Positions 8,479 through 50,682 are shown, counted from the first letter of the stretch. The stretch: 64,000 nucleotides of DNA from Thermoplasmatota archaeon (GCA_029762535.1 JARVGK010000012.1:1-64000), one strand, 5' to 3'. The notes: generated from the letters alone by a model not told the origin. Numbers and translations are program-made.

Positions 8479-8523
8479 CCTCCGGTAGGAGAGCTGTGAT
8501 GAGAGACGGTATTAGATAATCTT

Positions 8524-15173: not shown

Positions 15174-16109
15174 TCATGTCCTCTCGTGCCTCGAGCCGAC
15201 CCTCAGCTCCCCAAGGGTCGAGACCCTCTCCGCAAGGGCATCGTGCTTGTGTATGGACTCCTCGGAGACCGAGCGGACCCTTATAACGACATCGTCATCG
15301 AGCTCGGGATGGGATCCCAATAGGTCATCGATGATGTCCCTGACTATGTCCTCGACGAACTTGGGCCTCCTGTGGGCTTCGAGGACGACCCTTGCCTCAC
15401 CCATTCTCTTCAGGATCTCGTAGGTGGGGGAAGAGAGGTTCCTCTCGACGATGTCGATGAGCTCGTCGGCGTCCATCATGACCCCGTCCGTGGAGGACAG
15501 GAAAAGCTCCACCCGGTTCTTCTGATTGTGGGTGGGGACCGGGATCAGATCGAGAACCTTTATCTGTTCAGGGGTCGCCCCTCCCTCCGAGAGCTCCTCG
15601 GACAGGAGCTTCCTGACGGTCTCCATCGCGCAGGGGCATGCGCTCATGCCCGACACCTCGACCCCGATCGTTCTCAGTGGCCTCGCATCGCCCCGCCTGA
15701 CCGAAGCGTTGGCGGCGATGACGTAGTTCTCGAGGACGGCCTTGCCGTCTGGCGAGGTCCTCTCCCTGAAGTAATCGGCCCTGAGCCCTATCTCGGCATA
15801 TGTGGCATATTCGTGCGACTCGAGAAGGGATAGGGCTATCCTCTCAACGAACGCCTCCAGGGAATCGTTCTCCATGTCGAGGGCGGAATCGACGGCCCTG
15901 TGTATGACCTCTACGTGCCTGGACATGTGCGATCCCCGCTGCTGGGCCGGGAGGTTGACCATCACGTCTATCGAGGGGACGAGGCTCACGTCCTTTCCCG
16001 GGCGGTGAATGGTGACCGGACGTTTGATCCCCTTTACGCCCACCCTGCTTAGGTTGTAGCTCGAGAACAGTTCCCTTCCCTGCACGTCCGGCAGATCCAT
16101 CTCATGCAC
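15174..16109 (-). CDS. mptA: GTP cyclohydrolase MptA/FolE2 family
   Basis: LPDVQ, RVGV, RGSHMSR, SACPCA, THNQ, PKFVED, ESIHKHDA. Confidence 0.9.
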   Translation of the reverse strand: MHEMDLPDVQGRELFSSYNLSRVGVKGIKRPVTIHRPGKDVSLVPSIDVMVNLPAQQRGSHMSRHVEVIHRAVDSALDMENDSLEAFVERIALSLLESHEYATYAEIGLRADYFRERTSPDGKAVLENYVIAANASVRRGDARPLRTIGVEVSGMSACPCAMETVRKLLSEELSEGGATPEQIKVLDLIPVPTHNQKNRVELFLSSTDGVMMDADELIDIVERNLSSPTYEILKRMGEARVVLEAHRRPKFVEDIVRDIIDDLLGSHPELDDDVVIRVRSVSEESIHKHDALAERVSTLGELRVGSRHERT

Positions 16110-16971
16110 CGCCCGTCAGTTCCTTAACTGCCCGCGCAACCGGTGCGGTGGCCGAGAAAGCGGTGGTCTGGTTCTCGATCGTGTCAGAGGAGAAAAGGCC
16201 GTCGAGGATGTGTTCCAACCTCTCCCGTCCCCCTCCGGTGAACAGGCCGTGGACGCAGCATGCGAAGACCTTCCTGGCCCCCTGCTCCCTAAGAGCCTCA
16301 GAGGCCCTGGCGATGGTCGAGCCCGTGGCGATAATATCGTCCACTATGCACACGTCCTTTCCGTCGACGTCCAGTTCCTTTCTCGCCATCGTGACGGTGG
16401 AGCCGTCTATCCTGGTCTTTTCCAGGTGGTCGAAGGGGCACCCGGCCGTTCTCGCCGCCTCGGCCGCATAGGTTATGGCCCCCTTGTCCGGTGAGAGTAC
16501 CAGGTCCAACCTGCCCTTCATCATTCCCCCCAGTTCGCTCATCACGGAGACGTTCCTTTTTCCGACCGCTGTTCCGAACTCCTCCAGGGTAGCCTGTTTG
16601 TGCAGATTGACGCAAATAACGTCGCTCAGAGAGAGGGATAGATGCCTGGCCATGGTCCGTGCCGCGAAGGATTCTCCTTCCTTGAAGACCCTGTCCTGCC
16701 TGGCGTATCCGAAGTATGGAATGACCCCGATGACCCGCGACGCGCCGTTGTCACGTGTCATGGATGACAGCATAAGCATCTCCAAAGCGTTATCGTCGGG
16801 GTAGGTGGATTGGACGATTAGAACGGTCTCGCCGGTGATATCCTCGAGCAGCCTGGCATACAGCTCTCCATCGGGGAATCGCCTGATGTCAGCATTCAGA
16901 ATTCCGGCATCCAGCTCCTTGGAGAGGGATGTGCACAGGGATGGATTGGAGCTGCCGCAGAGGATTCGCAT
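16102..16971 (-). CDS. prs: Ribose-phosphate pyrophosphokinase
   Basis: RFPDGE, PYFGYARQDR, SPDKGA, IVDDIIATGST, HGLF. Confidence 0.95.
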   Translation of the reverse strand: MRILCGSSNPSLCTSLSKELDAGILNADIRRFPDGELYARLLEDITGETVLIVQSTYPDDNALEMLMLSSMTRDNGASRVIGVIPYFGYARQDRVFKEGESFAARTMARHLSLSLSDVICVNLHKQATLEEFGTAVGKRNVSVMSELGGMMKGRLDLVLSPDKGAITYAAEAARTAGCPFDHLEKTRIDGSTVTMARKELDVDGKDVCIVDDIIATGSTIARASEALREQGARKVFACCVHGLFTGGGRERLEHILDGLFSSDTIENQTTAFSATAPVARAVKELTGGA

Positions 16972-27460: not shown

Positions 27461-30400
27461 AAGGGATGAGGATGATAAAAGCGAGTAATGTGATCATTAT
27501 TTTGCTGTCCACTGCCATTATTCAGCTACTTGTCTTGCCAGGGCCCACCTCCCTGGGGGATCCGATCCCGGAGCAATCCTTCGGGGGCGGATCGGGGACG
27601 GCGGGGGATCCCTACGTCATCGAGGACGTGTGGGATCTCCAGAATATGAGCAAGGATCTCAGCGCCCACTACGTCCTCGGGAACGATATCGACGCCTCCG
27701 ATACGATCAATTGGAACTCGGGGGCGGGATTCGATCCGATCGGGACCAAAACGATCAATTTCAAGGGAAGCCTGGATGGAGAGGGACATTCCATCAACGG
27801 CCTGTTCATAAATCGTTCTGAAGAGGATTACGTAGGTTTGATCGATATATTATATTATGGAGGAAGGATCATCGATCTGAATATATACGATTCAAATATA
27901 ACCGGCGGATCCTATGTTGGAGGTCTGTCCGGGTATAACTTAGGTTATATTGAAAATTCGTCCTTTTCAGGGAGGGTCAGTGGTAAGAACTATACTGGGA
28001 TGATAACAGGATATAATATTGGAAGTATATCAGGTTCTCATACTTACGGGATCATGATCGGAGGAAATTATGTTGGAGGTATCGTAGGTTTCCAATATTC
28101 ATATTATCATTATTATTCTGGAAAGATCGAGAATACTTTTTCTGAAGCGAATGTGATAGGAAAATCGCATATCGGAGGGTTATGTGGTTCCAACACCGGA
28201 CCGATCATAGATTCTTTTTATACTGGAAATGTATCTGGCGATAAAGCTGTAGGAGGTATACTTGGCAGTATAGGAGAGGACGGATACGTCTCGAATTCCT
28301 TCTATGATGTGGATAATGTACTCATCAACGGTCGGAATCATCTGACCATCGGCGGATTGTTCCATGATGAGTATGAGGATTGGTTTAGAAACAATAGGAC
28401 CTTGAACATTTCACACTATAATGATACTTTGATACCTTCCGGAGACCATTATGAGATAAATGCTGTAGATGGAATGAAAAAATTGCTCGTTTTCTCTCAT
28501 ATCGAAGATTATAAGTTCAGATTGTCTTCGGACATAGATCTTATTATATTCCCCGGGCTACATATCCCTTTCTTTCGCGCAGCGGAATTCAATGGGAACG
28601 GATACAAGGTATACAACCTATGTCTGGATCAGGATTTTTCATATTATACTGGACTCTTTGGATTTAATTCAGGAGGTTTTATCTCAAATTTATCCATGGT
28701 CGATGTTAATGTGAAGGGTGATAATAATGTAAGTGGTTTGATAGGTTATAATCATAAGGGTGACGTCAAGGATATTCAGGTAAATGGAATCATATCTGGT
28801 AAGAATAACATTGGAGGTGTCATCGGATCAAATTATAATACGAATGTCATAAGCTCTTCAAATTTTAATGGAACCATAAATGGGGCATTCTCTGTCGGCG
28901 GTATTGTTGGTAATAATCTTGGAAATGTTTTCAATTGTTATTCATCTGTTAATATTTATGGACGGAGAAACAATATTGGGGGAATATGCGGGTCGAATAC
29001 CGGTTCGATCAAGAACTCGAACGTTTACGGGAACCTGAGTGGCGATCATAACGTCGGTGGAATAGTTGGATCGACCTCCGGTCCTGTCTCTTTTTGCAGG
29101 TCATATTCATATGCTACGGGAAACAGGTCCATAGGATGCATTGCAGGAACGAATACAGGAACTATATCGGATGTGCTATCGGAAGGATTCGCCCATGGTG
29201 ATCTATCTGTCGGTGGGATTTCGGGCAAAGCGAATGGACATATAATGAGGTCCAGATCTAAATCAAACATCGATGGTCGTTCATCTATAGGCGGAATTGC
29301 CGGAAACAGCAATCGGATTATCATGGATTGTGCGTTCTCAGGAAAGATTGTTTCGACCGGATATTCTTCGGGTGGAATAGTTGGGGACTTGCAGGGTTCA
29401 AATTGGGATAATTCCGGGTACGTGATGGATAGTGTATCCTCTGGGGAGGTAGATGGACATATTTCTGTCGGGGGAATAGCTGGTTACAGCAGCGGAACCA
29501 TCGTTGATTCATGTTCATTGACAAATGTTAGCGGTATTCTGCATGTCGGTGGCGTTGTCGGTTTGTACAGAGGAATTGTGAATAATTGTTATTACAATAT
29601 AGATAAGGTACTAATCAACGGCATACATCAGGTTACATATTGTGGCCTGTTCGATCGCCAGTATTTGGATTGGATCCAAAGCAATAAGGTTTTGAACATT
29701 TCGGATTACGGCGAATGGTTGGTTCAAACACATGATGGCTATGATGTGTCATCCATAGATGGATTAAAATATCTTCTCGGTTTTTCCCATGAAAATAATA
29801 TCCGTATAAGCATAATTGCAGATATCGATCTGTCCAATAAATATAATCTCCACATCCCATATTTTTCGGGAGAGGAATTCGATGGGAACGGTCACAAATT
29901 ATTGAATTTGACAGTAGACCAGGATTTCTCTAATTATCTCGGTTTGATAGGTTACAACGATGGCGGGACGATCAGGGACCTATCCCTCTTCCATCTGAAT
30001 ATTACTGGCCAAAGATATATTGGGGGAATTACAGGATACAACAACGGAGGAAAGATCACCAATGTATTGGTCGATGGTGCCATATGTGGAAAGGATGAAC
30101 ACACAGGCGGAATAGTCGGATACAATTCAGGCAACCTTCACAATTCTTCCTCAAGTGGAATGCTCTCTGGAAAAAATGTTGTAGGCGGTTTGATAGGAGA
30201 ACACTGGGGTTCATTGACGGATTCATATTCATCGATGAATATCAATGGCGAAGGGTCCATAGGAGTATTGGTCGGAAGAAATCATGGAAAGATATTCAAC
30301 TCATTTTATAATATAGATCAAGTTGAGATAAATGGAATGAATCATATTTATAGAGGGGGGATCTTCGATCGACAGTTCAACGATTGGATAACGAATGATA

Positions 30401-33400
30401 GATCACTTGACATCAATGATTACAAAGATTCACTTCCATTTTCGAGAGGGTTTTATGAGATATCGTCCGTTCAGGGGATCAGGGATGTTTTGGGCTTTTC
30501 GTCATCTGAAGGGCTGAGGTTTAGAATGGTTTCGGATATCGATCTCAAGGATGAGTCGGGTTTACACATCCCTCATTTTTCCGCGGAGGAATTCGATGGA
30601 AATGGTTTTACAGTATCAAACTTGAATATGGAAAATAATTTTTCAGAGAAGATCGGTTTTTTTGGAGAGGTGTCCAGAGGAAATATCAGAAACGTAGTTC
30701 TAAAGGATGTAAGGATAACCGGAACGAACCACGTTGGTTCGTTGGCGGGATCGAATAATGGCAACATATACCATTCATATTCCGAAGGTTCTATCTCGGC
30801 ATGGGACAATGTGGGCCTTTTAGTGGGAAGTAATTCAGGAACGATCTTGAATTCAAGAACGGAGGGAACCTTGAATGGAAGAAGTCGTGCAGGTCTTATT
30901 GCTGGTATGAATTATGGAGCAATTTTAGATTCATCCGTTGAAGGTATATTAAAAGGAAAGGACTTTATTGGGGGATTGGCCGGTGAGAATCGAGGTTTTA
31001 TAAATAGATCCTTTTCAACAACCCAGGTCAAAGGCAGTGTAGAGTGTGTGGGGGGCATATGTGGTATGAATACAGGATCGATCTCAGAAACCTGTTCAAA
31101 CGGAGAGGTAAAAGGTTCTGAGAAAGTAGGTGGTCTGGTGGGATATAATGGTATGTTCGGAAAAATTAAGGATTCATATTCAATATCATCGGTCGAGGGA
31201 AATAAGAATATTGGAGGTTTGGTAGGAGCCAATGAATTATATTCTTTAATATCGAATGTATATTCTTCAGGAAGGATTGTAGGCAATATGAATGTCGGCG
31301 CCATCACAGGATATAACGGTGGGACAATCAAGAACAGTTTCTGGGACAATGAGTCTTCCCTTCAGACCTCAAGCGCTGGAGGAATGGGTAAAAGCACATC
31401 GGAACTCATGAAAAACAAGACCTATACAAGCGCAGGATGGGATATGGATGACGTTTGGTGGATGATTGATACGGCCACGCGGCCAATATTGAGGATGGAG
31501 TGGTCTGAAAGTATATCCAATATACATCAATTACAGATGATGGCAGCTAATTTAAGCGCTGATTATGAACTCGTGAGCGATCTGGACCTATCATCGATCA
31601 CAGAAGAGTCGGAAATTTGGGGAACGAATCTTTCATCTGGTAAGGGATTTTTCCCAATAGGGGATATGAATGGACCATTTTTAGGCACCTTCGATGGTTT
31701 GGATTATGAGATCAAAAATTTATATATCAATAATGCCGATAAGGACAATGTTGGATTGTTTGGTTATATTGGGAAAGGAGGGGCCTTGACAAATGTAAAG
31801 ATATCTGATGTATATGTCATAGGTAATTCATATGTCGGTGGGATCGCCGGGTATATTTACTATGGATATTTGACTTTTTCATATTCGAAAGGATTTATTA
31901 AAGGAAATGAATATGTTGGAGGGATAACGGGCAGTCTATTGGGCACGACGATATCACACTCTTTTTCAGAAGGGAGCGTTAAAGGTCATGGTATCGTTGG
32001 AGGACTGGCGGGTTCGAATAATGCTGCTGGAGTGATATCGAATTCCTATTCCAATGTTGTATGTGATGGTATCATACGGGTAGGAGGTATGGTAGGATAT
32101 AATGCGGGTAAAATATACAATTCATATTCATCCGGGAGAGTAACAGGAAATGAGAGGATAGGCGGTATGGTCGGATCGGATTATGGGTTGGTAATATTGA
32201 GTTTCTGGGATAATGAAACATCAGGACAAACCAGCAGCCCGGGAGGGATTGGAAAGAATACTTCAGAGATGAAGATTAGAATAACCTTCTCAAATGCTCA
32301 TTGGGACCTATCAAATATCTGGTGTATTGCGGAAGGTTTGACATATCCACTTCTGAGGTGGCAGGATAAGGCACCTCCAATAGCCAATGCGGGAAATGAT
32401 ATAACCATCGACCAGGGAACGTTATTGAAATTTAACGGAAGCGCCAGCTATGACGATCTGATGATAGCTCAATTCGAATGGACATTTAATATCGATGATT
32501 ATGCGGTTGTATTATATGGTAAAGGTCCCACATATCTGTTCGATAGACCGGGGACCTTCCTGGTCACTTTGACCGTCATTGATGTTGTTGACCTTATCGA
32601 TAGCGATACCATTATAGTGAATGTAAGAGAGGTCGAAGGTTACGATCCGTTCCCTCCTGTTGCTAATGCGGGAAATGATATTATTATTGTCAATGGAAGT
32701 AAGGTTACTTTTGACGGCAGTGCATCTTATGATAATATTGGTATCGTCAATTATACCTGGACCTTATACGACAATAAAACGATCTTCCTTTATGGTGTGA
32801 ACCCAACGTATATTTTCAACTTTGTTGGATCATATTGTGTTACATTGAATGTAAGTGATGCTTGGGGGTCTTGGAGTGTCGATATGATCAATGTGACCGT
32901 CATTGAATTGCCATATGTCGATGAAACGTCTCCCATCTGCATAGCAGGATCTGATGTGGAGATTAATGAAAGAGAGAGAGTCTATTTCGATGGAAGAGGA
33001 AGCCACGATAACGTCGGGATCGCAAGCTATACCTGGACCTTCTTCGACGGGATCGAGGACGTGGTCCTTCAAGGGAGCACTCCCTCCCACATATTCACCG
33101 TTCCCGGAAGATACACCATAACTCTCACCGTCATGGACGAGGCGGGGAACTCCGGATCCGACACGATGACCGTGTCGGTTCGGGACATAACCCCTCCCAT
33201 CGCGAACGCCGGGGAAGATCTCGTAATTGATGAGGGATCCCCTGTCCAGTTCGACGGAAGCGAGAGCTCCGACAACGTGATGATAGTGAACTACACATGG
33301 ACCGTGATATCGGGGTCCCGAAGGACCTCCCTCTATGGCGTGGACCCTGTCCACGTCTTCGGGGATCCGGGAGTGTACGTCGTGACATTGGAGGTCCTTG

Positions 33401-39647: not shown

Positions 39648-42600
39648 ATGGACAGGTCGTTGAAGCTAGCCGCTTTTATAGTTGTTTCTTTGATGTTGAT
39701 CACGCCTTTGTTGTCATCGGCCGACTCGTTCCCGGTCACAAGGGCCTCGTATCCGAAGATGGCACAGGTCACGGTCCGCCTCACATATCCGAACGCCACT
39801 GTAGCTAAGGGATGCAACGTTTATGTACACAAATTCGATAGTGGATACGGCTACACCCACTCATCTGGGGTGACGGATGTTACGGGAATGGTCGAGATAG
39901 ATGTCACTCCTTACGAACTGGGACCATGCTATATAACGGCCCAAAACGAAACTGGCCTGAGGTTCGTAAGGGAACAGATATACATCGAGCCGGGAGGAGT
40001 TTACGAGAGGAACATGGTCCTTTGGGAGGGCATGCCCTTCGATTACAATATACACGGGACCGTAAGGAACCTGAAGACGGGTGGGACGATTTCGGGAGCA
40101 AGCGTACAGATATACGGATCGGATGAGATGACCCGCAATATAAACATCAACCGAAAAACAGGGTCCGATGGGAGATACTCATTGTATGTCCCATATTCAC
40201 CTTATCCATACAGCATCCAGGTAGGAATGTCCGGCATTCCCGGGATGAGGTCCTATTCATCGACCCTATACCTGAACAGGTCGATTACCAGCTATCAGAT
40301 GGATGTCGATCTGAGGTCCGATCCGCCCACGAACCCGCTGAACATCAGGTTCCTCGATAGTTCGACGGGACAGCCTATAGAGTTTCCTAACATTGTGGTA
40401 AGCGGGACCAAGGCATACGACGATCATATACCATATTATTATGACTCATATTTTGGGCTCGGCTCACCATGGTGGCTTAACCTGTCTTTGGGGAAGGGAG
40501 AGTACGTCTATAGCTTTCACAAGTCTGTATATCGCGGGGGCGGAAGTATGACCTTCTCTACGAATTACGGGGTCATCATGGAAGACATTCCGATAACAAG
40601 GGAGGTCTCGGTTCCCATAGTCCATGATCTCAGGAACGTCACCTTCAGGGTCGTTACCAAGGGAACGGGAGTGCCGATCCCATCGGTCAACATATTCTCA
40701 AATGAGGTCCATTACGAGGATCTGGGAATACTGATGAGGACCATCTCATCCGGTTACACCAACGCGACCGGCCATGTGACCATGCCGATGCTGCCCGGAA
40801 GGGAATACGAGTTCAGATTTTCGAGATACTCCTATGATGAAACGTCGATCACAATTCCCGCCGGCCCCGTTACCGATCACAGAAATATCGAGGTGGAGAT
40901 GGAGCATCGTCCGAAACCATCACCTGGTTCGGGTAACATATCCATACTGGCGAAGGATCAGGCCACAGGCAGGATACTTCCGTATGTCACTTTGACCGGC
41001 AGAAGCGATGATATGTATTTCGTGGGGAACACTATGGAAGATGGCTACATGAACATGTCCGTCCCGGCGGTGAGATACTACGAGATAGAGCTCAAATGCG
41101 GCCTGGGAACGGGGACGGTCAACGATGTTTTGGTCCAGAAGGACGGGACAACCACCTTGACAATGTTCCTCACTGAAAGGAGGACCTTCTATGAGAAACC
41201 AAGATATGAATATTCATTCAGGCTCGTGAACGAGGCGGGGGATCCCCTGCCCAACAAGTACGTCCCGATCACGAAAGAAGTTGATGGCGGCGGAGGTTGG
41301 TGGCTTCTGAGCTCCCATTCTGATGGGGACGGATCGGTCCGCATTATCTGGGAAGAGGGTGATTATGAGATATTCAAGACCGAAGTTTATGGCCGATACG
41401 ATATCATGACCCAGACCAGAACACATCACGTTCCCGCCGTTGGGGACGGGTTCACGGTAGGCGCCCCGGGCGGGATGGGGCCGGACATAACGCTCTACAG
41501 CGCCCATCCGTTCACCGACGTCTCGGGTACTGTTAAAGAGCTTGGAAGCGGGGATCCGATCTTCAACGCGGGGATAGAGTACAGCACAGGAAGGGGTCTG
41601 GACGAGGATCCGGGCCTGGATGTGGTGTACATGAAGAGCCGTTTCTCATCGACCACCGAGGGCAGATACAGGATGTGGGGCAAGGACGAGATCGAATACA
41701 GATGCACGAGGCCGGGTTATTTCCCTAAAAGCGGCATGGTCGATACATCCTCCAGAGGCCCCACCATGGACATATTCCTCGAGCCCCTGCTCGAGATGAT
41801 CACGTTCGTCAACGGCACACTTGTGGACTATATGAACGTGACCAGTAGCGGTTACGTGGAGATATACGATCTTGACAGGGACCTCTACGAGGTGGGTGTA
41901 TACATGCCCTCGGAGGATGGACTATTCTCCATACCGGTATATCCGGGCAGGTTCGAGATCAGATACGGGAACGATACGATCCACGAGATCGTCGAGATCA
42001 CCGTCGGCGAGGATGGATTGGAAGATTTGCTTCTGGTCATGACGCCGGAGACAGTTATCGAGGGCATGGTGGTGAACTGGAGCGAGGATCCCCTCGAGGG
42101 GATCGATGTGGACCTGATATCGGGCGATGATGTCGTGGATACAGCCACGACAGATGGAGAGGGCCATTACATTTTCGAGGCCCTTCCCGGGACATATCAC
42201 CTAATAGTAGCCGGCAGCGAGCTCTACGAGGAATACATGAGCGAGGACATAGTGGCGACGGGATACAATGCATTCACTATCGACATCACGCTCATGAACC
42301 GTACAACGGGAGATCTCCAAGGAATGGTCATCGGCGACTCACCAATTGGCCAAGGTCCGATCATCGGAGCCCTCGTTGACCTCATGATCGGATCGAACGA
42401 TACGGTATCGTCCACAACGACAGACGAGGATGGCCTCTTTTCGTTCGCCGATGTGGAATATGCTTCGGGTTACCACCTTCATGTCGAACCTCCCGCGAAT
42501 ATGACATACGATGAGGAGGAACGAATTCCCGGGTACCTTCCGACTATCCATGGTCCCTTCGATCTGATGACGATGGACCTATTGATCGAGGTAGAACTGG

Positions 42601-43607
42601 AGTATCGTGAGATCGAATATCCCGGGTATTACAACATCACGACCTATTCTCCATCAGGTAGCGATGTTTTCCTGAACGAGCCGATCTGGATGAGGTTCTC
42701 CCACGCGATCAACATATCGACGTTCAACGACAATGTGATCGTCCATCCCGAACTGGCGGAACCGGTTGTGGTGTGGAGCGAGGGCAACACGAAGCTGATG
42801 ATCGATCATTTTGGTTTCACGCCCAACACCACATACACGGTGAGGGTCCTTCCGGGGCTCCTGTCCGTGGAGGGCTATTCGCTCTTCACCAGACCTTACT
42901 TTGTCTGGAACTTCACGACCGGTATGGAGGAGATCACCTGGCGCCTGGACAACAAGGTCATCTCCATATTCGACAACAGGACCGTTCAGGTGTCCGTAAC
43001 TGGGCTTGAGGGTTTGATCGTGTACTTCGTTATCGAGGGTATCGACTCATTCCCGCTCACCGAGGAGCCCCTCGGCACATACAGAGGCTTCGTTCAGGGA
43101 TCGCTTCTGGAATGGGATACGGAGTATGATTACCATTTCTCCGATGCGGATGGAGGTCCCGACAGAGCACCGGCCCTCGCCGGCAGCTTCATGACGCCGG
43201 AGGAGGTAATTCCATGGAAGCTGGATTCCGCCAGTGTGAAAATAGACAAGGACGGCAACTGGGTCGTGAAGGCCGAGGGCAACCCCGGTCAGGACGTTCA
43301 CATCGTGATAGATGGAGTTGGGTCCTTCAAGCTGACGGAGACGTCTCCCGGCATCTACGAGACAGAGATCCAGGCCAGGGAGTTCGATGAGGGCGAGGAA
43401 TACGATTACTGGTTCTCCGACGCCGTAGACGGCGAGGACAAGGCCCCTGCGCTTTCCGGGTCATTGAAGGCCAAGGCCGAGGATCCCGCCGGAGGGATGT
43501 GGTGGCTATGCTGCCTCGCAGGCCTGGTCAGCGTCATACTCCTTATGCTTGTCGTAATCATTGTCCTTGTTCTCAAGAAGGGAAAGGGATCCGACATCGA
43601 GGAATGA
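39648..43607 (+). CDS. Large membrane-anchored surface protein, paralog of 679..4614
   Basis: Collinear motifs (YRMWGKD vs YRVWGKD, YGNDT, PNTTY, WNFTTG, YHFSD), signal peptide, TM then KKGKG...EE. Confidence 0.87.
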   Translation: MDRSLKLAAFIVVSLMLITPLLSSADSFPVTRASYPKMAQVTVRLTYPNATVAKGCNVYVHKFDSGYGYTHSSGVTDVTGMVEIDVTPYELGPCYITAQNETGLRFVREQIYIEPGGVYERNMVLWEGMPFDYNIHGTVRNLKTGGTISGASVQIYGSDEMTRNININRKTGSDGRYSLYVPYSPYPYSIQVGMSGIPGMRSYSSTLYLNRSITSYQMDVDLRSDPPTNPLNIRFLDSSTGQPIEFPNIVVSGTKAYDDHIPYYYDSYFGLGSPWWLNLSLGKGEYVYSFHKSVYRGGGSMTFSTNYGVIMEDIPITREVSVPIVHDLRNVTFRVVTKGTGVPIPSVNIFSNEVHYEDLGILMRTISSGYTNATGHVTMPMLPGREYEFRFSRYSYDETSITIPAGPVTDHRNIEVEMEHRPKPSPGSGNISILAKDQATGRILPYVTLTGRSDDMYFVGNTMEDGYMNMSVPAVRYYEIELKCGLGTGTVNDVLVQKDGTTTLTMFLTERRTFYEKPRYEYSFRLVNEAGDPLPNKYVPITKEVDGGGGWWLLSSHSDGDGSVRIIWEEGDYEIFKTEVYGRYDIMTQTRTHHVPAVGDGFTVGAPGGMGPDITLYSAHPFTDVSGTVKELGSGDPIFNAGIEYSTGRGLDEDPGLDVVYMKSRFSSTTEGRYRMWGKDEIEYRCTRPGYFPKSGMVDTSSRGPTMDIFLEPLLEMITFVNGTLVDYMNVTSSGYVEIYDLDRDLYEVGVYMPSEDGLFSIPVYPGRFEIRYGNDTIHEIVEITVGEDGLEDLLLVMTPETVIEGMVVNWSEDPLEGIDVDLISGDDVVDTATTDGEGHYIFEALPGTYHLIVAGSELYEEYMSEDIVATGYNAFTIDITLMNRTTGDLQGMVIGDSPIGQGPIIGALVDLMIGSNDTVSSTTTDEDGLFSFADVEYASGYHLHVEPPANMTYDEEERIPGYLPTIHGPFDLMTMDLLIEVELEYREIEYPGYYNITTYSPSGSDVFLNEPIWMRFSHAINISTFNDNVIVHPELAEPVVVWSEGNTKLMIDHFGFTPNTTYTVRVLPGLLSVEGYSLFTRPYFVWNFTTGMEEITWRLDNKVISIFDNRTVQVSVTGLEGLIVYFVIEGIDSFPLTEEPLGTYRGFVQGSLLEWDTEYDYHFSDADGGPDRAPALAGSFMTPEEVIPWKLDSASVKIDKDGNWVVKAEGNPGQDVHIVIDGVGSFKLTETSPGIYETEIQAREFDEGEEYDYWFSDAVDGEDKAPALSGSLKAKAEDPAGGMWWLCCLAGLVSVILLMLVVIIVLVLKKGKGSDIEE

Positions 43608-44453: not shown

Positions 44454-44582
44454 TGGTCCTATCGATAATGAAAGGGTCCAGGTCGAAGTTGTAAGGAATA
44501 TGCGGATAAGTAGACGGATACGCGTATATTCTTCATAAAAAGAGGAAAAGGCATAACTATGAAAAGAAACAAGAATATCAAT

Positions 44583-44774
44583 ATGTACGGAAAAGAAGAT
44601 ATCGAAAATATCATCGTGGAATATGAAAGAGCACTTCGCAGCTCGAAGGATCCCTTCAGCGAAGATCAGGTCCGATCCCTGAAGACCGCTTTTGGAATGG
44701 GGATCACACAAGCTCTCCTTCTCATCGAGAGGCGTATAGAGGCGGCTCCCAGCTCGATAAGGACGATGAAATAA
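44583..44774 (+). CDS. Small hypothetical protein
   Basis: About 63 aa amphipathic ORF downstream of an AT-rich promoter-like stretch, convergent with lrp. Confidence 0.5.
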   Translation: MYGKEDIENIIVEYERALRSSKDPFSEDQVRSLKTAFGMGITQALLLIERRIEAAPSSIRTMK

Positions 44775-44780
44775 AGGAAG

Positions 44781-45224
44781 TTAAGGGATCTCGAAGAGGG
44801 CATCCTTGACCCTCTTCATGACTATCTGGACCGAGCAATCCGCAACGCCGCAGGAGAGGAGCCTCGATGTGACGAAGGTGTTGAGGTCCTCCATGTCGGA
44901 GAAGAAACCTATGGCCATTACCGAATGGTCTCCGGTTATCTGATATATCGATACCAGCTCCTTGAATTCCTTCAGCTGTCTGATCATCTTTCCACTGTTG
45001 TCTCCCTGCACTTTGATCATGAGGACCGCCTGGACCCGCCTGTTGAACTTGGTAGGATTGAGTATCGCTGTATACCCTTTGATGTGTCCGGTCCTCTCCA
45101 GCTTCTCGAGCCTGTACCTGACCCCGTTCTCGCTGAGCTGTACCTTTCTCGCTATATCGGATATGGTGATCCTGGCGTTGTCCTGCAGCAGTCTGATGAT
45201 CTCCGTGTCGATCCTGCTTGCCAT
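44781..45224 (-). CDS. Lrp/AsnC family transcriptional regulator
   Basis: IDTEIIRLLQDNARI..SDIA....LSE..V.YR..KLE..G.I.GY; ITGD in the RAM domain. Confidence 0.95.
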   Translation of the reverse strand: MASRIDTEIIRLLQDNARITISDIARKVQLSENGVRYRLEKLERTGHIKGYTAILNPTKFNRRVQAVLMIKVQGDNSGKMIRQLKEFKELVSIYQITGDHSVMAIGFFSDMEDLNTFVTSRLLSCGVADCSVQIVMKRVKDALFEIP

Positions 45225-45383
45225 CCTATCACCAATGGTCGAGCATGTCGTTCATGATAGATTAGGATTCCGCAGAAAAACGGAACAAAAACCTCCGTAT
45301 CCTCAAAGAATCTATTTAAAACAGAAACCAGAACCCCATGAAGATATGAGAAAATAAAAATATCTCAACGGTGGGGCGAGCAT

Positions 45384-46757
45384 ATGGACGAACGTATAGA
45401 AAAGAAACTTTACAACCGCAGGGTGGGAAGGACGCCTCTTGTCAGAGCAAAGGGCCTGGAGAAGGCTCTGGACATGGAGGGTCTATACTTGAAGCTCGAG
45501 GGCACGAATCCCTCCGGGCATAAATGCGACCGCAGGTCCATATACACGGTCAAGCAGGCAAAGATAAGAAAGGCCGCGGACCTGACCATAGGTACCATCG
45601 GGTATATGGCCCGGTCCCTATCTGTACTCTGCCAGATGCACGATATCGATTTCCATCCATTCATCGCCTCGGGATATCCGGATGTCGAGGTCCCGGAGGG
45701 AGGGATCAAGGTGAAAGGAACTCTCGAGGACGCCGTCAAGAAGAGCATGGAGGCCGCGAAGGCGAACGGATGGTACGATGCAAATTCGCAGATGCCCCAG
45801 AGCCTGGACGATCTCGCCTACTCCTCGATATCCCGGGAGATACATTCGTCCCTGGGACTGATACCCGCTTGCATCTCGATGTCCGTATCGTCCGGGTCAA
45901 TGGCCTATGGCATACACGCAGGGTTTCTCGAGATATCGGTGCTTGAGGATGCGCAGCGGATGCCTGTGATGATAGGTGGGACCAGCAGGTATGGGAACGC
46001 CGTTCTGGCATCATATGAAAAGGGAGCGGACAGGGTAGAACACATGGTCATCGATATCCCATCGATGAAGAGCCCGATGTCGCCGCTCTTCCATTCCGGA
46101 GGTCAGGACGGTTCCCAGGTACTGGATGCTTTCAGGGACACCGGCGGTGGCATCTTCGGTTTCGAAAGGGAGCAACTGACGGCGACGAGAACGCTTCTGC
46201 GCAGGAAGGAGGGTATAGACTGCGATCTCTATTCCATTGCGGGATTGAACGCCTTGATAAAGGCCAGGGAGAACGGCCTGATCGGAAATGGCCCGAACAT
46301 CGTCGTCCTCTCCACGGGAAGGCCCGATACCGTTGTCAGAAGGATGGCGGGATCCGAGATCGACACGCATGATCTGGCATTGACATTGGATTCCTGGCTT
46401 GGAAGGTTCACCGACCCCATCGAGGAGATCGAGGATGCCGTCCAGAACGCTTTCGATGAGGGATTCGTCATCGGAGCCTACCGGGGTGATGACCTCAGCG
46501 GGATAGTGATACTGTCCAGGATGCATTTCGATAGCTTCTTTCCAAAATATCATCTATCCTACATAGCCTCGGACCCGAGGTCCACCGGCAGGGGGATCGG
46601 CACCAGTTTGATGGACAAGGCGATCGAGCTGACCGACGGTGATTTCTCGCTTCATGTGGAACCGGACAACCGAAAGGCGATAAACGTCTACAGGAAGATG
46701 GGTATGGACGTCAAGTACCTTCGTATGCATTTCAGGAAGCCCAAGGAGGAGGCTTGA
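45384..46757 (+). CDS. Threonine-synthase-like PLP fold-II domain (degenerate) fused to a GNAT acetyltransferase
   Basis: GRTPLV...LYLKLEGTNPSG; C-terminal YIASDP..TGRGIGT.LM...LHVEPDN..AI..Y.KMG. Confidence 0.8.
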   Translation: MDERIEKKLYNRRVGRTPLVRAKGLEKALDMEGLYLKLEGTNPSGHKCDRRSIYTVKQAKIRKAADLTIGTIGYMARSLSVLCQMHDIDFHPFIASGYPDVEVPEGGIKVKGTLEDAVKKSMEAAKANGWYDANSQMPQSLDDLAYSSISREIHSSLGLIPACISMSVSSGSMAYGIHAGFLEISVLEDAQRMPVMIGGTSRYGNAVLASYEKGADRVEHMVIDIPSMKSPMSPLFHSGGQDGSQVLDAFRDTGGGIFGFEREQLTATRTLLRRKEGIDCDLYSIAGLNALIKARENGLIGNGPNIVVLSTGRPDTVVRRMAGSEIDTHDLALTLDSWLGRFTDPIEEIEDAVQNAFDEGFVIGAYRGDDLSGIVILSRMHFDSFFPKYHLSYIASDPRSTGRGIGTSLMDKAIELTDGDFSLHVEPDNRKAINVYRKMGMDVKYLRMHFRKPKEEA

Positions 46758-47803
46758 TGCCCCCGAGGGTAAGGATAGACCTCAAGGCTATAAGCGACAA
46801 CGCCCGGATGTTGATGGAACTGTGTTCCAAACGATCGATATCGATATCCGGCGTGACCAAGGCGAGCGCCGGAAGCATGGAAGTGGCTCAAGCGATGATC
46901 GATGGAGGGGTAAGGGAGATCGCCGATTCACGCATCGCTAATCTGATGAGGTATTCAAAACTCGACGTTAAGAGGATGCTCTTGAGGCCCGTGACCCCGG
47001 AACAGGCCGGACCCGCAGTTGAGGCATGCGATACGAGCCTGAACACGGAACTGGAGACCATCAAGTCGTTGGGCAGAGAGGCCCTTCGAAGGGGTGTGGA
47101 GCATCGTGTGATCATCATGGTGGACCTGGGTGATAGGCGCGAGGGTGTGATGCCCCGGGATGCTACGGCGATCTGCGAGGAGGCCTCGAGCATCGATGGG
47201 ATCGATCTCAGGGGCATAGGGACGAACCTCGCATGTTTCGCGGGGATCATCCCGACCCCGGTGAAGATGGCCCAGCTGAGCCATATCGCCGAGATGGTGG
47301 AGGACAGGATCGGGCTCCCACTCGAGACAGTGTCCGGTGGAAACAGCGCCAATCTGGGAATGGTCCTGAAAGGATCGAACCATCACAGGGTCAATGATCT
47401 CAGATTGGGGGAATCCATACTCCTGGGCCTCGAGACCGTTAACAGGACTCCAGTGCCAGGTCTGAGAACGGACGCCTTCATCGTCTCGGGTGACCTCATC
47501 GAGGTCAAGGAGAAGCCCTCCAAACCCGATGGCGATGTCGGACAGGATGCTTTCGGGAACACCGTGGAGATAAAGGACGAAGGCATGCAGATAAAGGGGA
47601 TAGTCAACCTGGGTCGGCAGGACGTGGACCCTTCCGACCTCGTACCTGTCGGTGACGTGAAGGTCCTTGGCGGGAGCAGCGATCACACTTTGCTGAGCTT
47701 GAGACGATCGCTGAAGGTGGGTTCGAGCATCGGTTTCATACCCGGGTACGGATCACTTCTGCGCTGTATGACATCGCCCTATGTGGAGAAGGTGTACGTA
47801 TGA
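46754..47803 (+). CDS. Alanine/ornithine racemase-family PLP enzyme (Orr-like)
   Basis: GVTK, ADSRI.N, MVDLGD.REG, GIGTNLAC, SGGNSA, LRLGE.I..G, GRQDV, GGSSDH, Y..L...MTSPYV. Confidence 0.88.
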   Translation: MMPPRVRIDLKAISDNARMLMELCSKRSISISGVTKASAGSMEVAQAMIDGGVREIADSRIANLMRYSKLDVKRMLLRPVTPEQAGPAVEACDTSLNTELETIKSLGREALRRGVEHRVIIMVDLGDRREGVMPRDATAICEEASSIDGIDLRGIGTNLACFAGIIPTPVKMAQLSHIAEMVEDRIGLPLETVSGGNSANLGMVLKGSNHHRVNDLRLGESILLGLETVNRTPVPGLRTDAFIVSGDLIEVKEKPSKPDGDVGQDAFGNTVEIKDEGMQIKGIVNLGRQDVDPSDLVPVGDVKVLGGSSDHTLLSLRRSLKVGSSIGFIPGYGSLLRCMTSPYVEKVYV

Positions 47804-47949
47804 TGGATGATGAGAAGATATGCCCCAAGTGCGGGAAAAGGAGTGCCCAGAGAAGGTTATTGAACAACAGGAAGTACATCATCGTCTGCTCCATTTGCGG
47901 ATACTCATCCGATGAGCTTCCAGTATCCGGCGGAAAGGACGTGGTCTGA
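47800..47949 (+). CDS. CPxCG-type zinc-finger microprotein (49 aa)
   Basis: Below the ORF-track cutoff; hand translation MMDDEKICPKCGKRSAQRRLLNNRKYIIVCSICGYSSDELPVSGGKDVV; ATG overlaps the racemase TGA. Confidence 0.7.
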   Translation: MMDDEKICPKCGKRSAQRRLLNNRKYIIVCSICGYSSDELPVSGGKDVV

Positions 47950-48636
47950 TCAGAACAATATGAACAGGACCAGGATCCAGCATACGGCGCTGACGGCTGT
48001 GGAAGTTCCGAAATATACTTTCCTGTCTATTTTCTGTATTTCCACGTGCAGGTTGTCGTATAGGGCGAACACCGGAACGGAGATCCCGCCGAGGAGGGCA
48101 GCATAGAAGGCCCTCCCGGCGATCAGGGGGAGAATGTTGACGACATCCATGATGACGAGCGTTGCCCCGGTGAAGACCGGGGTTAGTATCTGGGTCGTAA
48201 CGTATCCTATCGAGAACACCGTGAAACCGCTGATCACTCCCAGGGACGCGAGCGCCCGGACATCCTTCCTGCCCCAGAGGTTATCCATGAACACTTTTCG
48301 GCCGACGATCATTTCGAAGACCATGCCCTCGACAGCGATCGCTATCGCCGAGCATATCACGCAGGACCCTATGGGCGCGAAATATCTCATTATCGAGGCG
48401 ACAAGAGCGACAAGGAAGACCGCTCCCGTGAAGTTGAACATCCTCCTTGCAAGTATCATGAACCCAAGCCCGAACAGACCGGCCATGACCGCACCCATGG
48501 ATATGTAAAGCCCGGAAACGCTCCATTTGAGGCCTCCCAGAGTGCATTCGAGCAATCCCCAGATGGACCCCAGGAGGACAATCCCGGCAAGGACCATGGC
48601 ACGATCGATGGCGGACCTGCTCACTTTCATGTTCAT
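47950..48636 (-). CDS. Six-TM membrane protein, ECF S-component-like
   Basis: 228 aa, about 6 TM segments, GSIWGLLECTLGG and AIAVEG motifs; coupled to the upstream lipoprotein. Confidence 0.55.
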   Translation of the reverse strand: MNMKVSRSAIDRAMVLAGIVLLGSIWGLLECTLGGLKWSVSGLYISMGAVMAGLFGLGFMILARRMFNFTGAVFLVALVASIMRYFAPIGSCVICSAIAIAVEGMVFEMIVGRKVFMDNLWGRKDVRALASLGVISGFTVFSIGYVTTQILTPVFTGATLVIMDVVNILPLIAGRAFYAALLGGISVPVFALYDNLHVEIQKIDRKVYFGTSTAVSAVCWILVLFILF

Positions 48637-49355
48637 ATCACCTCTATCTCCACGATGTCAGATATATGGAACTTCTTGGACAGATGAGGGAAGAAGCTTT
48701 TCCTACCTTCTTCGACGAGTATTCCCTGGGTCATGTCCTCCCAGCTCACTGTCCTGTTGTAACCGTCGCTGCCTATGATATTGTAAGTGTGTGAGGCCTG
48801 ATCGTTGGCTATTGTCAGGTTGATGACCTGGGACAGGTAAACGCCTTCTATGTCGTTCTCGTCGGCGTCCTTTAGCGTGACGGTATCGTCGATCATGTGG
48901 AAGGGCTGCTTCCATGTGAAGAGGTGGTCGTTCACCAATATTGTGGGGACGCTGACGGTCTCGATCTCGACCACGTTCTTGACCCTATACTTACCCGGCA
49001 GCCCTGGGAACGCGGTCATGGTATCCTCTTCCACAAGGACCCCCTTCATCATATCGTCCCAGGTGACGTCCTGATAATAATCGTCATCTGCTGTTATGCG
49101 ATACTGATGGTCCCCGGGCGAAGCGAGCCCCGTGCTGTTAACGATATTGCTGAGAGGGACACCGGTATAATCTTTACCCCCCGTGTTAACGGTAATAGTC
49201 CCGTATCCCTCGAACATCTCATCGAGCGAGATCTCCTCGCCGTTGAAGAGTATGGTCGGCCCTTGTCCCTCTTCGCTTTCAAGGCATCCGGCCACGAGAA
49301 CGGTCAAGAGGACCAAGGCCGCGGATGCCGCCAGATATATCTTTCCATCTTTCAT
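48633..49355 (-). CDS. Lipoprotein with two sulfite-oxidase/Oxidored_molyb-like domains
   Basis: Lipobox VAGC; two repeats YTGVPLS..ADDDY..V.W.D..G..PG..VK.VVEIE and GVYLS..GSDGY..V.W.D..G..ISDIVEIEV. Confidence 0.65.
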   Translation of the reverse strand: MKDGKIYLAASAALVLLTVLVAGCLESEEGQGPTILFNGEEISLDEMFEGYGTITVNTGGKDYTGVPLSNIVNSTGLASPGDHQYRITADDDYYQDVTWDDMMKGVLVEEDTMTAFPGLPGKYRVKNVVEIETVSVPTILVNDHLFTWKQPFHMIDDTVTLKDADENDIEGVYLSQVINLTIANDQASHTYNIIGSDGYNRTVSWEDMTQGILVEEGRKSFFPHLSKKFHISDIVEIEVI

Positions 49356-49356
49356 C

Positions 49357-49791
49357 TCATATCACCTCTATCTCCACTATATCCCTGACCCAGAAGGCCT
49401 TGGCCATACCTGGCAGCACGACCTTCTTCTCCTCGATGACTATGAATCCGTTACCTATGTCCTCTCCGGGCACCTCCTTGCGGTACCCGTCGGCCCCTAT
49501 GAACCTGAAGGACCTCGAACCCACGTCCTTGACCCCGGCATCCTCGAGGAGGGCCACCAGTGAGATCCCGGTCCTGCCCTCGTGCTCGATCATGGGAAGA
49601 TCTCTTTCGAGGGATCCCCAATCATACTCCTTATCGTTCACGATGAGCACATCGGTTTCCTCGGTGCTCATGGCGTTGTACACCAGAGCGCTGAACGATC
49701 CGATCAGAATTATCAGCGCAAGGACAGCAAGGATAAGATTGATCCTCGTTCCGAAGAAGCGTATCCTGCTCCCGTTTTCCTTCCCGAGCAT
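49357..49791 (-). CDS. Membrane-anchored single Oxidored_molyb-like domain protein
   Basis: N-terminal TM, TGISL..LL, GADGY, PG...FWVRDIVEIEVI; same C-terminal DIVEIEVI as the neighbour. Confidence 0.65.
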   Translation of the reverse strand: MLGKENGSRIRFFGTRINLILAVLALIILIGSFSALVYNAMSTEETDVLIVNDKEYDWGSLERDLPMIEHEGRTGISLVALLEDAGVKDVGSRSFRFIGADGYRKEVPGEDIGNGFIVIEEKKVVLPGMAKAFWVRDIVEIEVI

Positions 49792-49962
49792 ATGCCCACC
49801 TCAGAGACCATCTGGCCGCTTCGGGATAGAGATTAATCGACTATAATCTTTACCATCGGCCTCTGTCAAAACCCACATCGATATCGGTCAGGGCTGCTCC
49901 CATCAGGTCATGTTTGGGGGCTGGAATCAGCAGGATAGATGACCATCCCTCCTGATTATCGT

Positions 49963-50682
49963 TCATTTTTCCCCATCATCTTCCCGTCGATCCCAAAGGG
50001 AACCATCGATGTCCCAAGAACTCTGGAGCAACATCAGTCCGGAGACCAGGTGGAAGTAAGGGGCGATCAGAAAGACCGCGATCACGATCGTTTCCTCCTC
50101 CATGATCAGCAGGCAGAAAGAGAGGAAATAGAGTATCATCAGGTTCAGACCTATACCTATCCACAGACCCACACCTCTCCTGATGAACTGCAGCTGCAGT
50201 CCGATCCCGAGAAGGAACAGGGCGGGACCCATCATCGTAACCAGAAAGATATGTTCCGAATCCAGATGGTATGTCATGAATGGGCCCGAGATGAGTATCA
50301 AAGCTCCCGCATAAGAGATCCATCTCGCGATGCGGAAATGCCATCTATCGATCTCTCCCAAGGCATGCGTCAGCTCGTGCATCTTGAAGAGAATGAATAC
50401 CGATACCCCCATCAGGCACAGTATCATAACGACAAGTGTGATACCCATGAGCGGGTAAAGGCCCGATAGCATCATGGGATACAGCGATATATCCAGAAGG
50501 ACGATCGTTTCGATAAGGACCAATATCCCAAGGGCCAGCGTGAATACGATAAGTCCGCGATAGAGGATCCTGGACACTTTATGTGGAGGGCGGCTTACTT
50601 CTGTGATCCCGGGATCGGATATGCCCATGACCTTGGAGAGATCGTAGGATGACGAGTCCAAATGAACACCTCTTCCATCCAT
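49963..50682 (-). CDS. Hypothetical polytopic membrane protein
   Basis: 239 aa with about 6 hydrophobic segments; no family recognised. Confidence 0.6.
   Translation of the reverse strand: MDGRGVHLDSSSYDLSKVMGISDPGITEVSRPPHKVSRILYRGLIVFTLALGILVLIETIVLLDISLYPMMLSGLYPLMGITLVVMILCLMGVSVFILFKMHELTHALGEIDRWHFRIARWISYAGALILISGPFMTYHLDSEHIFLVTMMGPALFLLGIGLQLQFIRRGVGLWIGIGLNLMILYFLSFCLLIMEEETIVIAVFLIAPYFHLVSGLMLLQSSWDIDGSLWDRREDDGEK

Follow-up and report, generated by a model that had tools for sequence, protein, structure and literature searches.

Ornithine racemases (OrnR, or Orr) use Lys36 and Cys164, with Arg129 and Arg220 holding pyridoxal 5'-phosphate (PLP) and Asn161 replacing the stacking His (Phillips et al. 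2025, PMC13397332), and in the DgcN/DgcA system (EC 2.3.1.312 and EC 5.1.1.25) D-glutamate is racemised irreversibly through N-acetylation (PMC12363236, PMC11747546). In the 64,000-nucleotide stretch of a Thermoplasmatota archaeon genome analysed here (GCA_029762535.1 JARVGK010000012.1:1-64000, hereafter the window), an OrnR-type racemase was encoded directly behind a gene that fuses a threonine-synthase-like fold-type II domain, devoid of its Schiff-base lysine, to a GNAT acetyltransferase. A third system that invites comparison is the ArgA-type N-acetylglutamate synthase (NAGS), in which an inactive amino-acid-kinase domain is fused to a GNAT and the dead domain is regulatory. We consider it fairly likely that the operon in the window is an acetylation-coupled amino-acid racemisation module. 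Its main features were:

45384..46757, plus strand: Lys-less fold-type II (threonine-synthase-like) domain fused to a GNAT, 457 aa (Pfam, NCBIfam, AlphaFold2, Foldseek)
45507..45536, plus strand: NPSGHKCDRR (residues 42-51), once the Schiff-base loop; Cys48, preceded by Lys47, takes the place of the Lys (alignment)
46416..46706, plus strand: GNAT core, residues 345-441, with acetyl-CoA motif RSTGRGIG (Pfam)
46757..47803 (start 46754 or 46757), plus strand: OrnR/Orr-type fold-III PLP racemase, 349 aa, with K36 and C161 (NF040742, catalytic residues)

The Lys-less fold-type II domain

The fusion protein matched Pfam PALP over residues 13-312 (103 bits), and the translation of 45384-46757 showed LEGTNPSGHKCDRRS at residues 38-52, TIGY at 71-74, VSSGS at 168-172 and RSTGRGIG in the GNAT, just as an initial annotation of this DNA, made from the sequence alone, had read them. 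The same annotation had placed a Cys at the Schiff-base Lys position, with a Lys one residue earlier, and HMMER did align NPSGHKCDRR to NPTGSFKDRG of Thermus threonine synthase without a gap, pairing Cys48 with the Schiff-base Lys and Lys47 with Phe. Because the NP...DR spacing was identical across 198 aligned relatives, the one-residue shift of the Lys is not an alignment artefact. The AlphaFold2 model of the fusion comprised two confident domains (pLDDT 91.5, pTM 0.89), and its top Foldseek matches were threonine synthases (E ~1e-17). By the Pfam match and this model, the PALP part has the two-domain fold of the tryptophan-synthase-beta type. The best NCBIfam threonine synthase model, PRK06381, scored 166.6 bits against a cut-off of 266, and TIGR00260 scored 22 against 167.

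A word-indexed search returned 90 clusters of PALP-GNAT fusions, and an exhaustive search returned 36 representatives at 50% identity (E<1e-30) and 809 homologs at E<=0.001. The loops of the fusions and of their unfused relatives were of these types:

Unfused relatives, about 320 aa: loop NPTGT[QH]KDR, canonical Lys
One fusion group: loop GTQKDR, canonical Lys
Most fusions (HxE type): loop GH[R]EDR, Lys lost
The window's clade (HK type): loop GHK[C/S/V/Y]DR, Lys displaced by one residue
Remaining fusions: loops GERSDR, GHMHDR, GRIQDR, GYRIDR and more, Lys lost

Across the 198-sequence alignment, the Schiff-base position was Lys in 69/69 canonical proteins (17/17 canonical fusions, 34/34 unfused relatives and 18/18 threonine synthases), Glu in 81/81 HxE fusions, and Ser, Cys, Tyr or Val in the HK type. 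The Asn that contacts PLP O3' was replaced by Thr in HxE and by Tyr in HK proteins (Tyr74 in the window protein), and the Thr that contacts PLP N1 by Asn or Asp in HxE and variously by Ser, Gly, Asn or Asp in HK proteins (Ser310 in the window protein). The phosphate loop GNG[ST]T read SSGSM in the window protein, which retained G171 and S172; in the aligned Lys-less proteins, G171 and one Ser/Thr were all that was left of it. The replacement residues H46 and a basic residue 47 were themselves fixed, as was D311 in 80/81 HxE sequences. Residue 47 was Arg in 72 of the 81 HxE proteins, with the same gene context, and Lys in the HK clade, where it was invariant in 19 sequences, and also in the basal protein P0094. 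The conservation of this Lys, a point raised by the initial annotation, thus held within the HK clade and failed in the HxE fusions. Such a pattern would fit a conserved positive charge and argues against a conserved Schiff base; since most HxE proteins have Arg at this position, Lys47 is unlikely to form one.

In a maximum-likelihood tree of the PLP-like domain, all 80/80 Lys-less tips formed one clade (support 0.94), the sister of which was the Lys-bearing pair P0122/P0125 (support 0.991); the Lys-bearing fusions formed a separate clade. P0125 comes from Thermoplasmata, where it is the PALP member of a PALP-DUF1611-GNAT operon. Mean pairwise identities of the PALP and GNAT domains were 0.59 and 0.68 in HxE fusions and 0.65 and 0.72 in Lys-bearing fusions, and the residues of highest conservation clustered at the former active-site loops; judged from these comparisons, the Lys-less domain is under purifying selection and shows no decay. 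The degeneracy proposed in the initial annotation is borne out by a Lys lost clade-wide, and the alignments support the view that the domain is not a canonical PLP enzyme, three of its four PLP contacts being remodelled yet conserved. Lys-less fusions also occurred in the cultured bacteria Alkaliphilus peptidifermentans DSM 18978, Clostridium lacusfryxellense DSM 14205 and C. tagluense. One contig assigned to Clostridium thermobutyricum (L098) carried two fusion copies about 6 kb apart, at 7995-9344 and 15566-16798.

Alternatively, the fold-II domain might still be a PLP enzyme, forming an aldimine on Lys47 in the HK clade or binding PLP non-covalently, and performing a beta- or gamma-replacement or a racemisation that is followed by N-acetylation. 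The invariant Lys47 of the HK type, shared with the basal Lys-less lineage P0094, would suit such an enzyme, as would the Ser310-Thr-Gly, G171 and S172 retained in the window protein and a fold that is predicted, with high model confidence, to be intact. We nonetheless regard this as unlikely, given that residue 47 is Arg in 72/81 racemase-linked HxE orthologs and Met, Ile, Leu or Val in others, that the O3' Asn is replaced by Tyr, that the canonical Lys is lost in all 80 clade tips, and that the domain is dispensable, stand-alone GNAT-racemase pairs nesting within the fusion GNAT clade (see below).

The racemase and the GNAT domain

The racemase is an Ala_racemase_N protein whose best NCBIfam model was NF040742 (Orr), at 352.6 bits against a cut-off of 480, with a match spanning residues 4-348 of 349; its relatives in other cassettes scored 380-405 bits. 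It carries the GVTK motif, the Lys of which is K36, and K36, R129, N158, C161 and R217 were each invariant in 40/40 racemase relatives, so that by its residues the catalytic set is intact and of the Cys type. The fusion stop codon TGA (46755-46757) and the racemase ATG (46757) have an A in common (TGATG), with GGAGGAGG just 5' of the ATG. The translational coupling of the fusion to an intact racemase, as first annotated, therefore stands. A complex prediction for fusion and racemase with custom alignments scored 0.26 against a mark of 0.32, and speaks neither for nor against binding.

The initial annotation had also remarked that other ornithine-pathway genes were absent from the window, and this can be extended to the whole genome (93% complete), where OrtB, the marker of clostridial ornithine fermentation, was not found (best score 26.5 bits against a cut-off of 550). 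No ornithine-fermentation genes (OraSE/Ord/OrtAB) were present among the conserved cassette neighbours. A clostridial ornithine-fermentation context was rejected on the absence of OrtB from the genome.

Residues 345-441 of the fusion matched Acetyltransf_1 (PF00583) at 47 bits against a cut-off of 20.7, with the acetyl-CoA motif R/Q-x-x-G-x-G/A intact as RSTGRG and G402 and G404 kept across the family. Among solved structures, the GNAT profile came closest to the N-alpha-acetyltransferases Naa30, Naa50, RimI and archaeal Ard1 (E down to 2e-9), and the best NCBIfam GNAT match was RimI, under its cut-off. These matches are what would be expected if the GNAT acetylated the N-terminus of a protein or peptide, such as the racemase itself or a released peptide, and not a free amino acid. 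We find this very improbable: similarity of this kind is weak and usual for small GNATs, the genes conserved alongside encode small-molecule enzymes of amino-acid metabolism and amino-acid-type symporters, and the acetyltransferase that replaces the GNAT elsewhere takes its name, DgcN-like, from an enzyme that acetylates a free amino acid.

Conservation of the cassette in Thermoplasmatota

Neighbourhoods of up to 7 kb per side, contig permitting, were collected for 40 fusion loci from a sample of the phylum and for further contigs. They included 31 archaeal Lys-less loci (29 HxE or HK by motif, 2 untyped), of which 24 had the order fusion, M20 deacylase, racemase and three, namely the window, L051 and L053, had the racemase directly behind the fusion; two were on short contigs that stopped ahead of the racemase position. 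The direct order was also seen in L001 and the P0010 contig, which came from other look-ups. Within the fetched flanks, no racemase was found near the fusion in any of nine Lys-bearing fusion loci or five GERSDR loci. At genome level, a racemase ortholog (E<=1e-60) was present in 43 of 401 sampled genomes of the phylum, including 37/37 with a Lys-less fusion (27/27 HxE or HK genomes, 5/5 GERSDR (ERS-type) genomes and 5/5 with fragmentary Lys-less fusions) and 0/9 with a Lys-bearing fusion; related genomes in these counts are not independent, and the pattern covers at least six families. The linkage to the racemase, on which the initial annotation had made its reading depend, is thus strongly conserved, mostly with M20 in between. 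In the five GERSDR genomes the ortholog was located elsewhere in the genome; one of these unlinked orthologs (G369:C74:4780-6954, L172) lay inside a 724-aa open reading frame (ORF), the extra part of which matched no query.

Clustering of ORFs from the 40 archaeal loci returned fusion, M20 and racemase as the only recurrent neighbours, and with 30 further, mostly bacterial, loci added, nothing beyond these three genes recurred widely. No second racemase family was found among the recurrent cassette neighbours. The M20 protein, which the initial annotation had not foreseen as the usual third member, is of the ArgE/DapE type: it scored 208.7 bits on TIGR01910, slightly under the cut-off of 217.6, its nearest structures were DapE and ArgE, and it fell under the cut-off of every equivalog model. 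In the window genome its ortholog, 54% identical, was unlinked on another contig (G000:C52:4985-6262).

An M20 of this type would also be expected if the fusion were a new NAGS for arginine biosynthesis, with a regulatory Lys-less domain and with M20 as ArgE. In a Bacillota metagenome-assembled genome, a single operon (L089:5342-9383) holds argC, argJ and a Lys-less fusion with the loop NPSGQRADR; in an archaeon of the window's family (L130), about 3 kb separate the fusion from argC and argJ; and the DgcN/DgcA route likewise yields N-acetyl-L-glutamate. We judge this improbable all the same, because such arg linkage was confined to 2 of more than 70 loci, the NCBIfam matches of the GNAT included no ArgA or NAGS model, the tightly linked racemase would be left without a role, and the window genome, with argB, argC and argJ clustered on another contig, has no gap in the arginine pathway to fill. 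Fusion and M20 were accordingly rejected as arginine gap-fillers, the three genes being on contig C4 (G000:C4:76377-80664), and NAGS is kept as a minor rival. A second argB/argC-like pair at G000:C43:7026-8771 may belong to a LysW-type pathway.

Acetyltransferase and deacylase together would equally suit a cycle of synthesis and breakdown, in which the module produces a compatible solute, an N-acetylated D- or diamino acid, that is broken down again with the help of M20 and whose unusual enantiomer the racemase supplies; N-epsilon-acetyl-beta-lysine and N-delta-acetylornithine are known solutes of a comparable kind. MscS channel genes lay near or directly beside the cassette in three lineages (L035/L039; L051; L040/L041/L054), an OpuA-type ABC transporter was near two bacterial fusions (L079 and L101), and Na+ symporters occurred within operons, among them an SNF symporter 3' of the racemase in the HK-type P0010 contig. 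These channel and transporter neighbours are few and mostly from related genomes, the in-operon symporters suit uptake and catabolism at least equally, and no such solute from these lineages was described in the literature searched, so a role in osmoprotection has, in our estimate, a low probability.

GNAT-racemase pairs without the PLP-like domain

Two stand-alone archaeal GNATs (148 and 162 aa, on four contigs) were 50-54% identical to the window GNAT, and each overlapped by 4 nt the start of a following Ala_racemase_N gene. In a GNAT tree, the resolution of which is low for so short a domain, they nested inside the Lys-less fusion clade. GNAT-racemase pairs were present in 6/8 GNAT-only loci, from Bacteroidota (L153, L157, L158 and L159), Chlorobiota (L155) and Bdellovibrio (L160), and the racemases directly 3' of these closest bacterial GNAT homologs were 28-33% identical to that of the window. 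The core module is therefore GNAT plus racemase and occurs in several phyla, which goes beyond the initial annotation; the suggestion made there that the degenerate domain is a sensor or scaffold fits with close stand-alone GNATs that keep the racemase and lack the domain, and with Arg at residue 47 in most orthologous cassettes. L159 had the order GNAT, M20 amidohydrolase, alanine racemase, OrnR-like racemase, and alanine racemase with M20 amidohydrolase was the context in both L078 and L159. A sodium:solute symporter (SSF) was within the operon in L157 and L160.

Where the racemase occurred without any fusion (G186 and G147), a DUF1611 protein was encoded 5' of it, and a DgcN-like DUF1611 adjoined the racemase in L175 and L176; such proteins scored about 150 bits on NCBIfam DgcN (D-glutamate N-acetyltransferase), with a cut-off of 480. 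Some genomes had a second racemase copy fused to a VanX-like M15 dipeptidase, with DUF1611 upstream (L080 and L173). From these contexts, the racemase family pairs with two unrelated acetyltransferase types and with D-amino-acid-type peptidases. The M15 fusions, at L080:5923-7662 and L173:363-2102, are 579-aa proteins that join an OrnR-like racemase to a VanX-like M15 D-Ala-D-Ala dipeptidase. No DUF1611 gene was found in the window genome (93% complete).

Unfused Lys-bearing PRK06381-type 'threonine synthases' always preceded a DUF1611 (DgcN-like) gene, in archaeal loci (L115:1331-3815, L107, L110, L114, L117, L121, L123 and L150) as in bacterial ones (L124, L127, L128, L131, L133 and L136), and in the Thermoplasmata version a small GNAT gene followed DUF1611. 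This PRK06381-DUF1611 operon is conserved and uncharacterised in archaea, Bacteroidota and Acidobacteriota. Neither the fusion nor the gene pair was described in the literature searched on ornithine racemase with acetyltransferase in archaea, DUF1611, N-acetyl-D-glutamate racemase and D-amino-acid N-acetyltransferase with racemase, and PALP-GNAT clusters in the protein atlas had generic names only.

A possible route of one-way racemisation

In the racemisation module that we favour, the OrnR-type PLP racemase would use Lys36 and Cys161 to interconvert the two enantiomers (L and D) of a free amino acid, an activity to which its family and residues point. The GNAT of the fusion would then N-acetylate one enantiomer with acetyl-CoA, probably at the alpha-amine, making the conversion irreversible, and an ArgE/DapE-type M20 might take the acetyl group off again or free the amino acid from a precursor. 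Racemisation is placed ahead of acetylation because a PLP racemase needs a free amine. The Lys-less domain, by its residues, most likely no longer does PLP chemistry; we postulate that it is an accessory ligand-binding part for the GNAT, either substrate-selecting or allosteric, since it is dispensable in close relatives and has a remodelled pocket with conserved charged residues. The most likely role of the whole is D-amino-acid handling, whether salvage, detoxification or the production of inert N-acetyl-D-amino acids. The basic amino-acid substrate assumed in the initial annotation was not upheld beyond family resemblance: similarity of the racemase to OrnR and of M20 to ArgE/DapE suggests a diamino acid (ornithine, lysine or diaminopimelate), whereas VanX-like M15, DgcN-like and alanine-racemase neighbours suggest the D-amino acids of peptidoglycan and the cell wall (D-Ala, D-Glu).

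Several points weigh against this reading. The HK-clade site is less degenerate than that of HxE proteins, with Lys47, a canonical-like Ser310-Thr311-Gly312 and G171/S172 kept, so residual PLP binding may occur in the window protein. In bacteria, the majority of Lys-less fusions stand without a racemase beside them, in contexts that vary (argC-argJ, an OpuA-type transporter or none), which implies that the fusion can function without the racemase. Protein N-terminal acetyltransferases are the nearest solved relatives of the GNAT, and hence the substrate could be a protein or peptide. Finally, a GNAT acting on the L-product would form a futile cycle with M20 deacetylation, and only some assignments of the enantiomers are workable.

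A bolder version, which seems to us possible and rather doubtful, is that a fold-II PLP domain was turned into a cofactor-free, enantiomer-selective receptor that hands the racemase product to the GNAT, with acetyl-CoA driving racemisation in one direction. If true, this one-way route would be widespread in Thermoplasmatota, would be represented in Bacteroidota, Chlorobiota and Bdellovibrio by the GNAT-racemase pair alone, and would either make N-acetyl-D-amino acids or feed environmental D-amino acids into metabolism; the clade-wide, maintained loss of the Schiff-base Lys would be an uncommon case of a PLP enzyme becoming a binding-module pseudoenzyme. We found no description of a Lys-less fold-type II binding module, and no published explanation for the pairing of a GNAT with an OrnR-type racemase, in the literature searched. 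In those Thermoplasmatota that are abundant, heterotrophic and uncultured, many small-genome lineages among them, the pair probably stands for a so far missing piece of D-amino-acid metabolism. For the Lys-less clade, annotation as 'threonine synthase' or 'PLP-dependent enzyme' is, on the residues involved, very likely wrong. As every part is small and soluble, the hypothesis is directly testable.

Neighbouring genes in the window

The genes around the fusion-racemase pair were:

44559..44774, plus strand: uncharacterised 71-aa ORF, no family match, with homologs in L040, L054 and L057 (tblastn)
44781..45224, minus strand: Lrp/AsnC-family regulator, 147 aa, divergent from the operon (Pfam)
45225..45383, no strand: divergent spacer, 159 bp, with A/T-rich TATA-like stretches (sequence read)
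47800..47949, plus strand: C4 zinc-ribbon ORF, 49 aa, CPKC...CSIC (ORF read, family search)

The Lrp, fusion, racemase and zinc-ribbon genes are all genuine ORFs. The regulator matched PF13404 (AsnC-type helix-turn-helix, 47.6 bits) and PF01037 (ligand-binding RAM domain, 42.1 bits), and scored under the cut-offs of the NCBIfam Lrp and LysM models. It is divergent from the operon, as initially annotated, and the 159-bp spacer at 45225..45383 is presumed from its sequence to be a candidate promoter and putative Lrp target. As a feature of the cassette, the Lrp linkage did not hold up: Lrp adjoined the cassette in three loci only (the window, L053 and the P0010 contig), and it was rejected as a cassette-wide regulator.

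The zinc-ribbon gene overlaps the racemase stop codon through ATGA at 47800-47803. Its homologs lay near the cassette within the window's own family only (L040, L041, L054, L057 and L058), and there the arrangement differs from that of the window, the zinc ribbon being upstream and divergent, together with the 71-aa ORF, whose homologs adjoin it upstream of the cassette. The zinc ribbon was therefore also rejected as a general member, contrary to the linkage first proposed, and both it and Lrp are lineage-local additions.

Elsewhere in the window, 28001-32000 had a G+C of ~0.40, compared with 0.52-0.60 in other parts, and a strongly positive GC skew, and may represent an island of foreign DNA, a repeat region or an RNA-rich one. 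The 1319-aa product of an ORF at 39648-43607 (plus strand) has a signal-like segment at its N-terminus and a hydrophobic anchor at its C-terminus, and is presumably a large surface protein. Four consecutive ORFs on the minus strand at 47950-50682, two of which were scanned against Pfam and neither matched, encode membrane proteins of 228 and 239 aa and secreted-looking proteins of 240 and 144 aa; both of the latter end in a ...DIVEIEVI motif, and the 240-aa one holds a further internal copy.

Comparison with known systems

Like fold-II enzymes of the threonine synthase type (PF00291; PRK06381 group), to which its predicted structure had a target-normalised Foldseek TM-score of 0.70-0.74, the fusion keeps the NP[ST]G...DR loop, the GxTPL loop and the phosphate-loop G171, and the sister group of its clade is a Lys-bearing PRK06381-type protein. 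Unlike them, it carries a fused GNAT, stays under the PRK06381 cut-off, has Cys (Glu in most relatives) for the Schiff-base Lys and Tyr or Thr for the O3' Asn, and belongs to a clade in which the N1 Thr is mostly replaced. The racemase, whose K36, R129, N158, C161 and R217 correspond to OrnR K36, R129, N161, C164 and R220 (PMC13397332), differs from OrnR/Orr in a score under the equivalog cut-off and in its context, which has acetyltransferase partners instead of ornithine fermentation, D-ornithine/lysine decarboxylase or siderophore synthesis.

The cassette M20 resembles ArgE/DapE in its near-threshold TIGR01910 score and its nearest structures, and departs from them in falling under all equivalog cut-offs and, in the window genome, in lying outside the operon. 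By analogy with what is generally known of ArgA, the fusion may be seen as a dead enzyme-derived domain N-terminal to an amino-acid GNAT; the dead domain here is of PLP fold II and not a kinase, and no sequence similarity to ArgA models was detected. DgcN/DgcA would provide the precedent for the logic proposed, namely N-acetylation coupled with amino-acid racemisation, and a DgcN-like DUF1611 is the alternative partner both of the racemase family and of the Lys-bearing ancestor of the PLP-like domain. The acetyltransferase of the window, however, is a GNAT and not a DUF1611 protein, and DgcA racemises an N-acetyl amino acid, whereas the PLP-dependent racemase of the window requires a free amine, so that the order of steps must differ from that of DgcN/DgcA.

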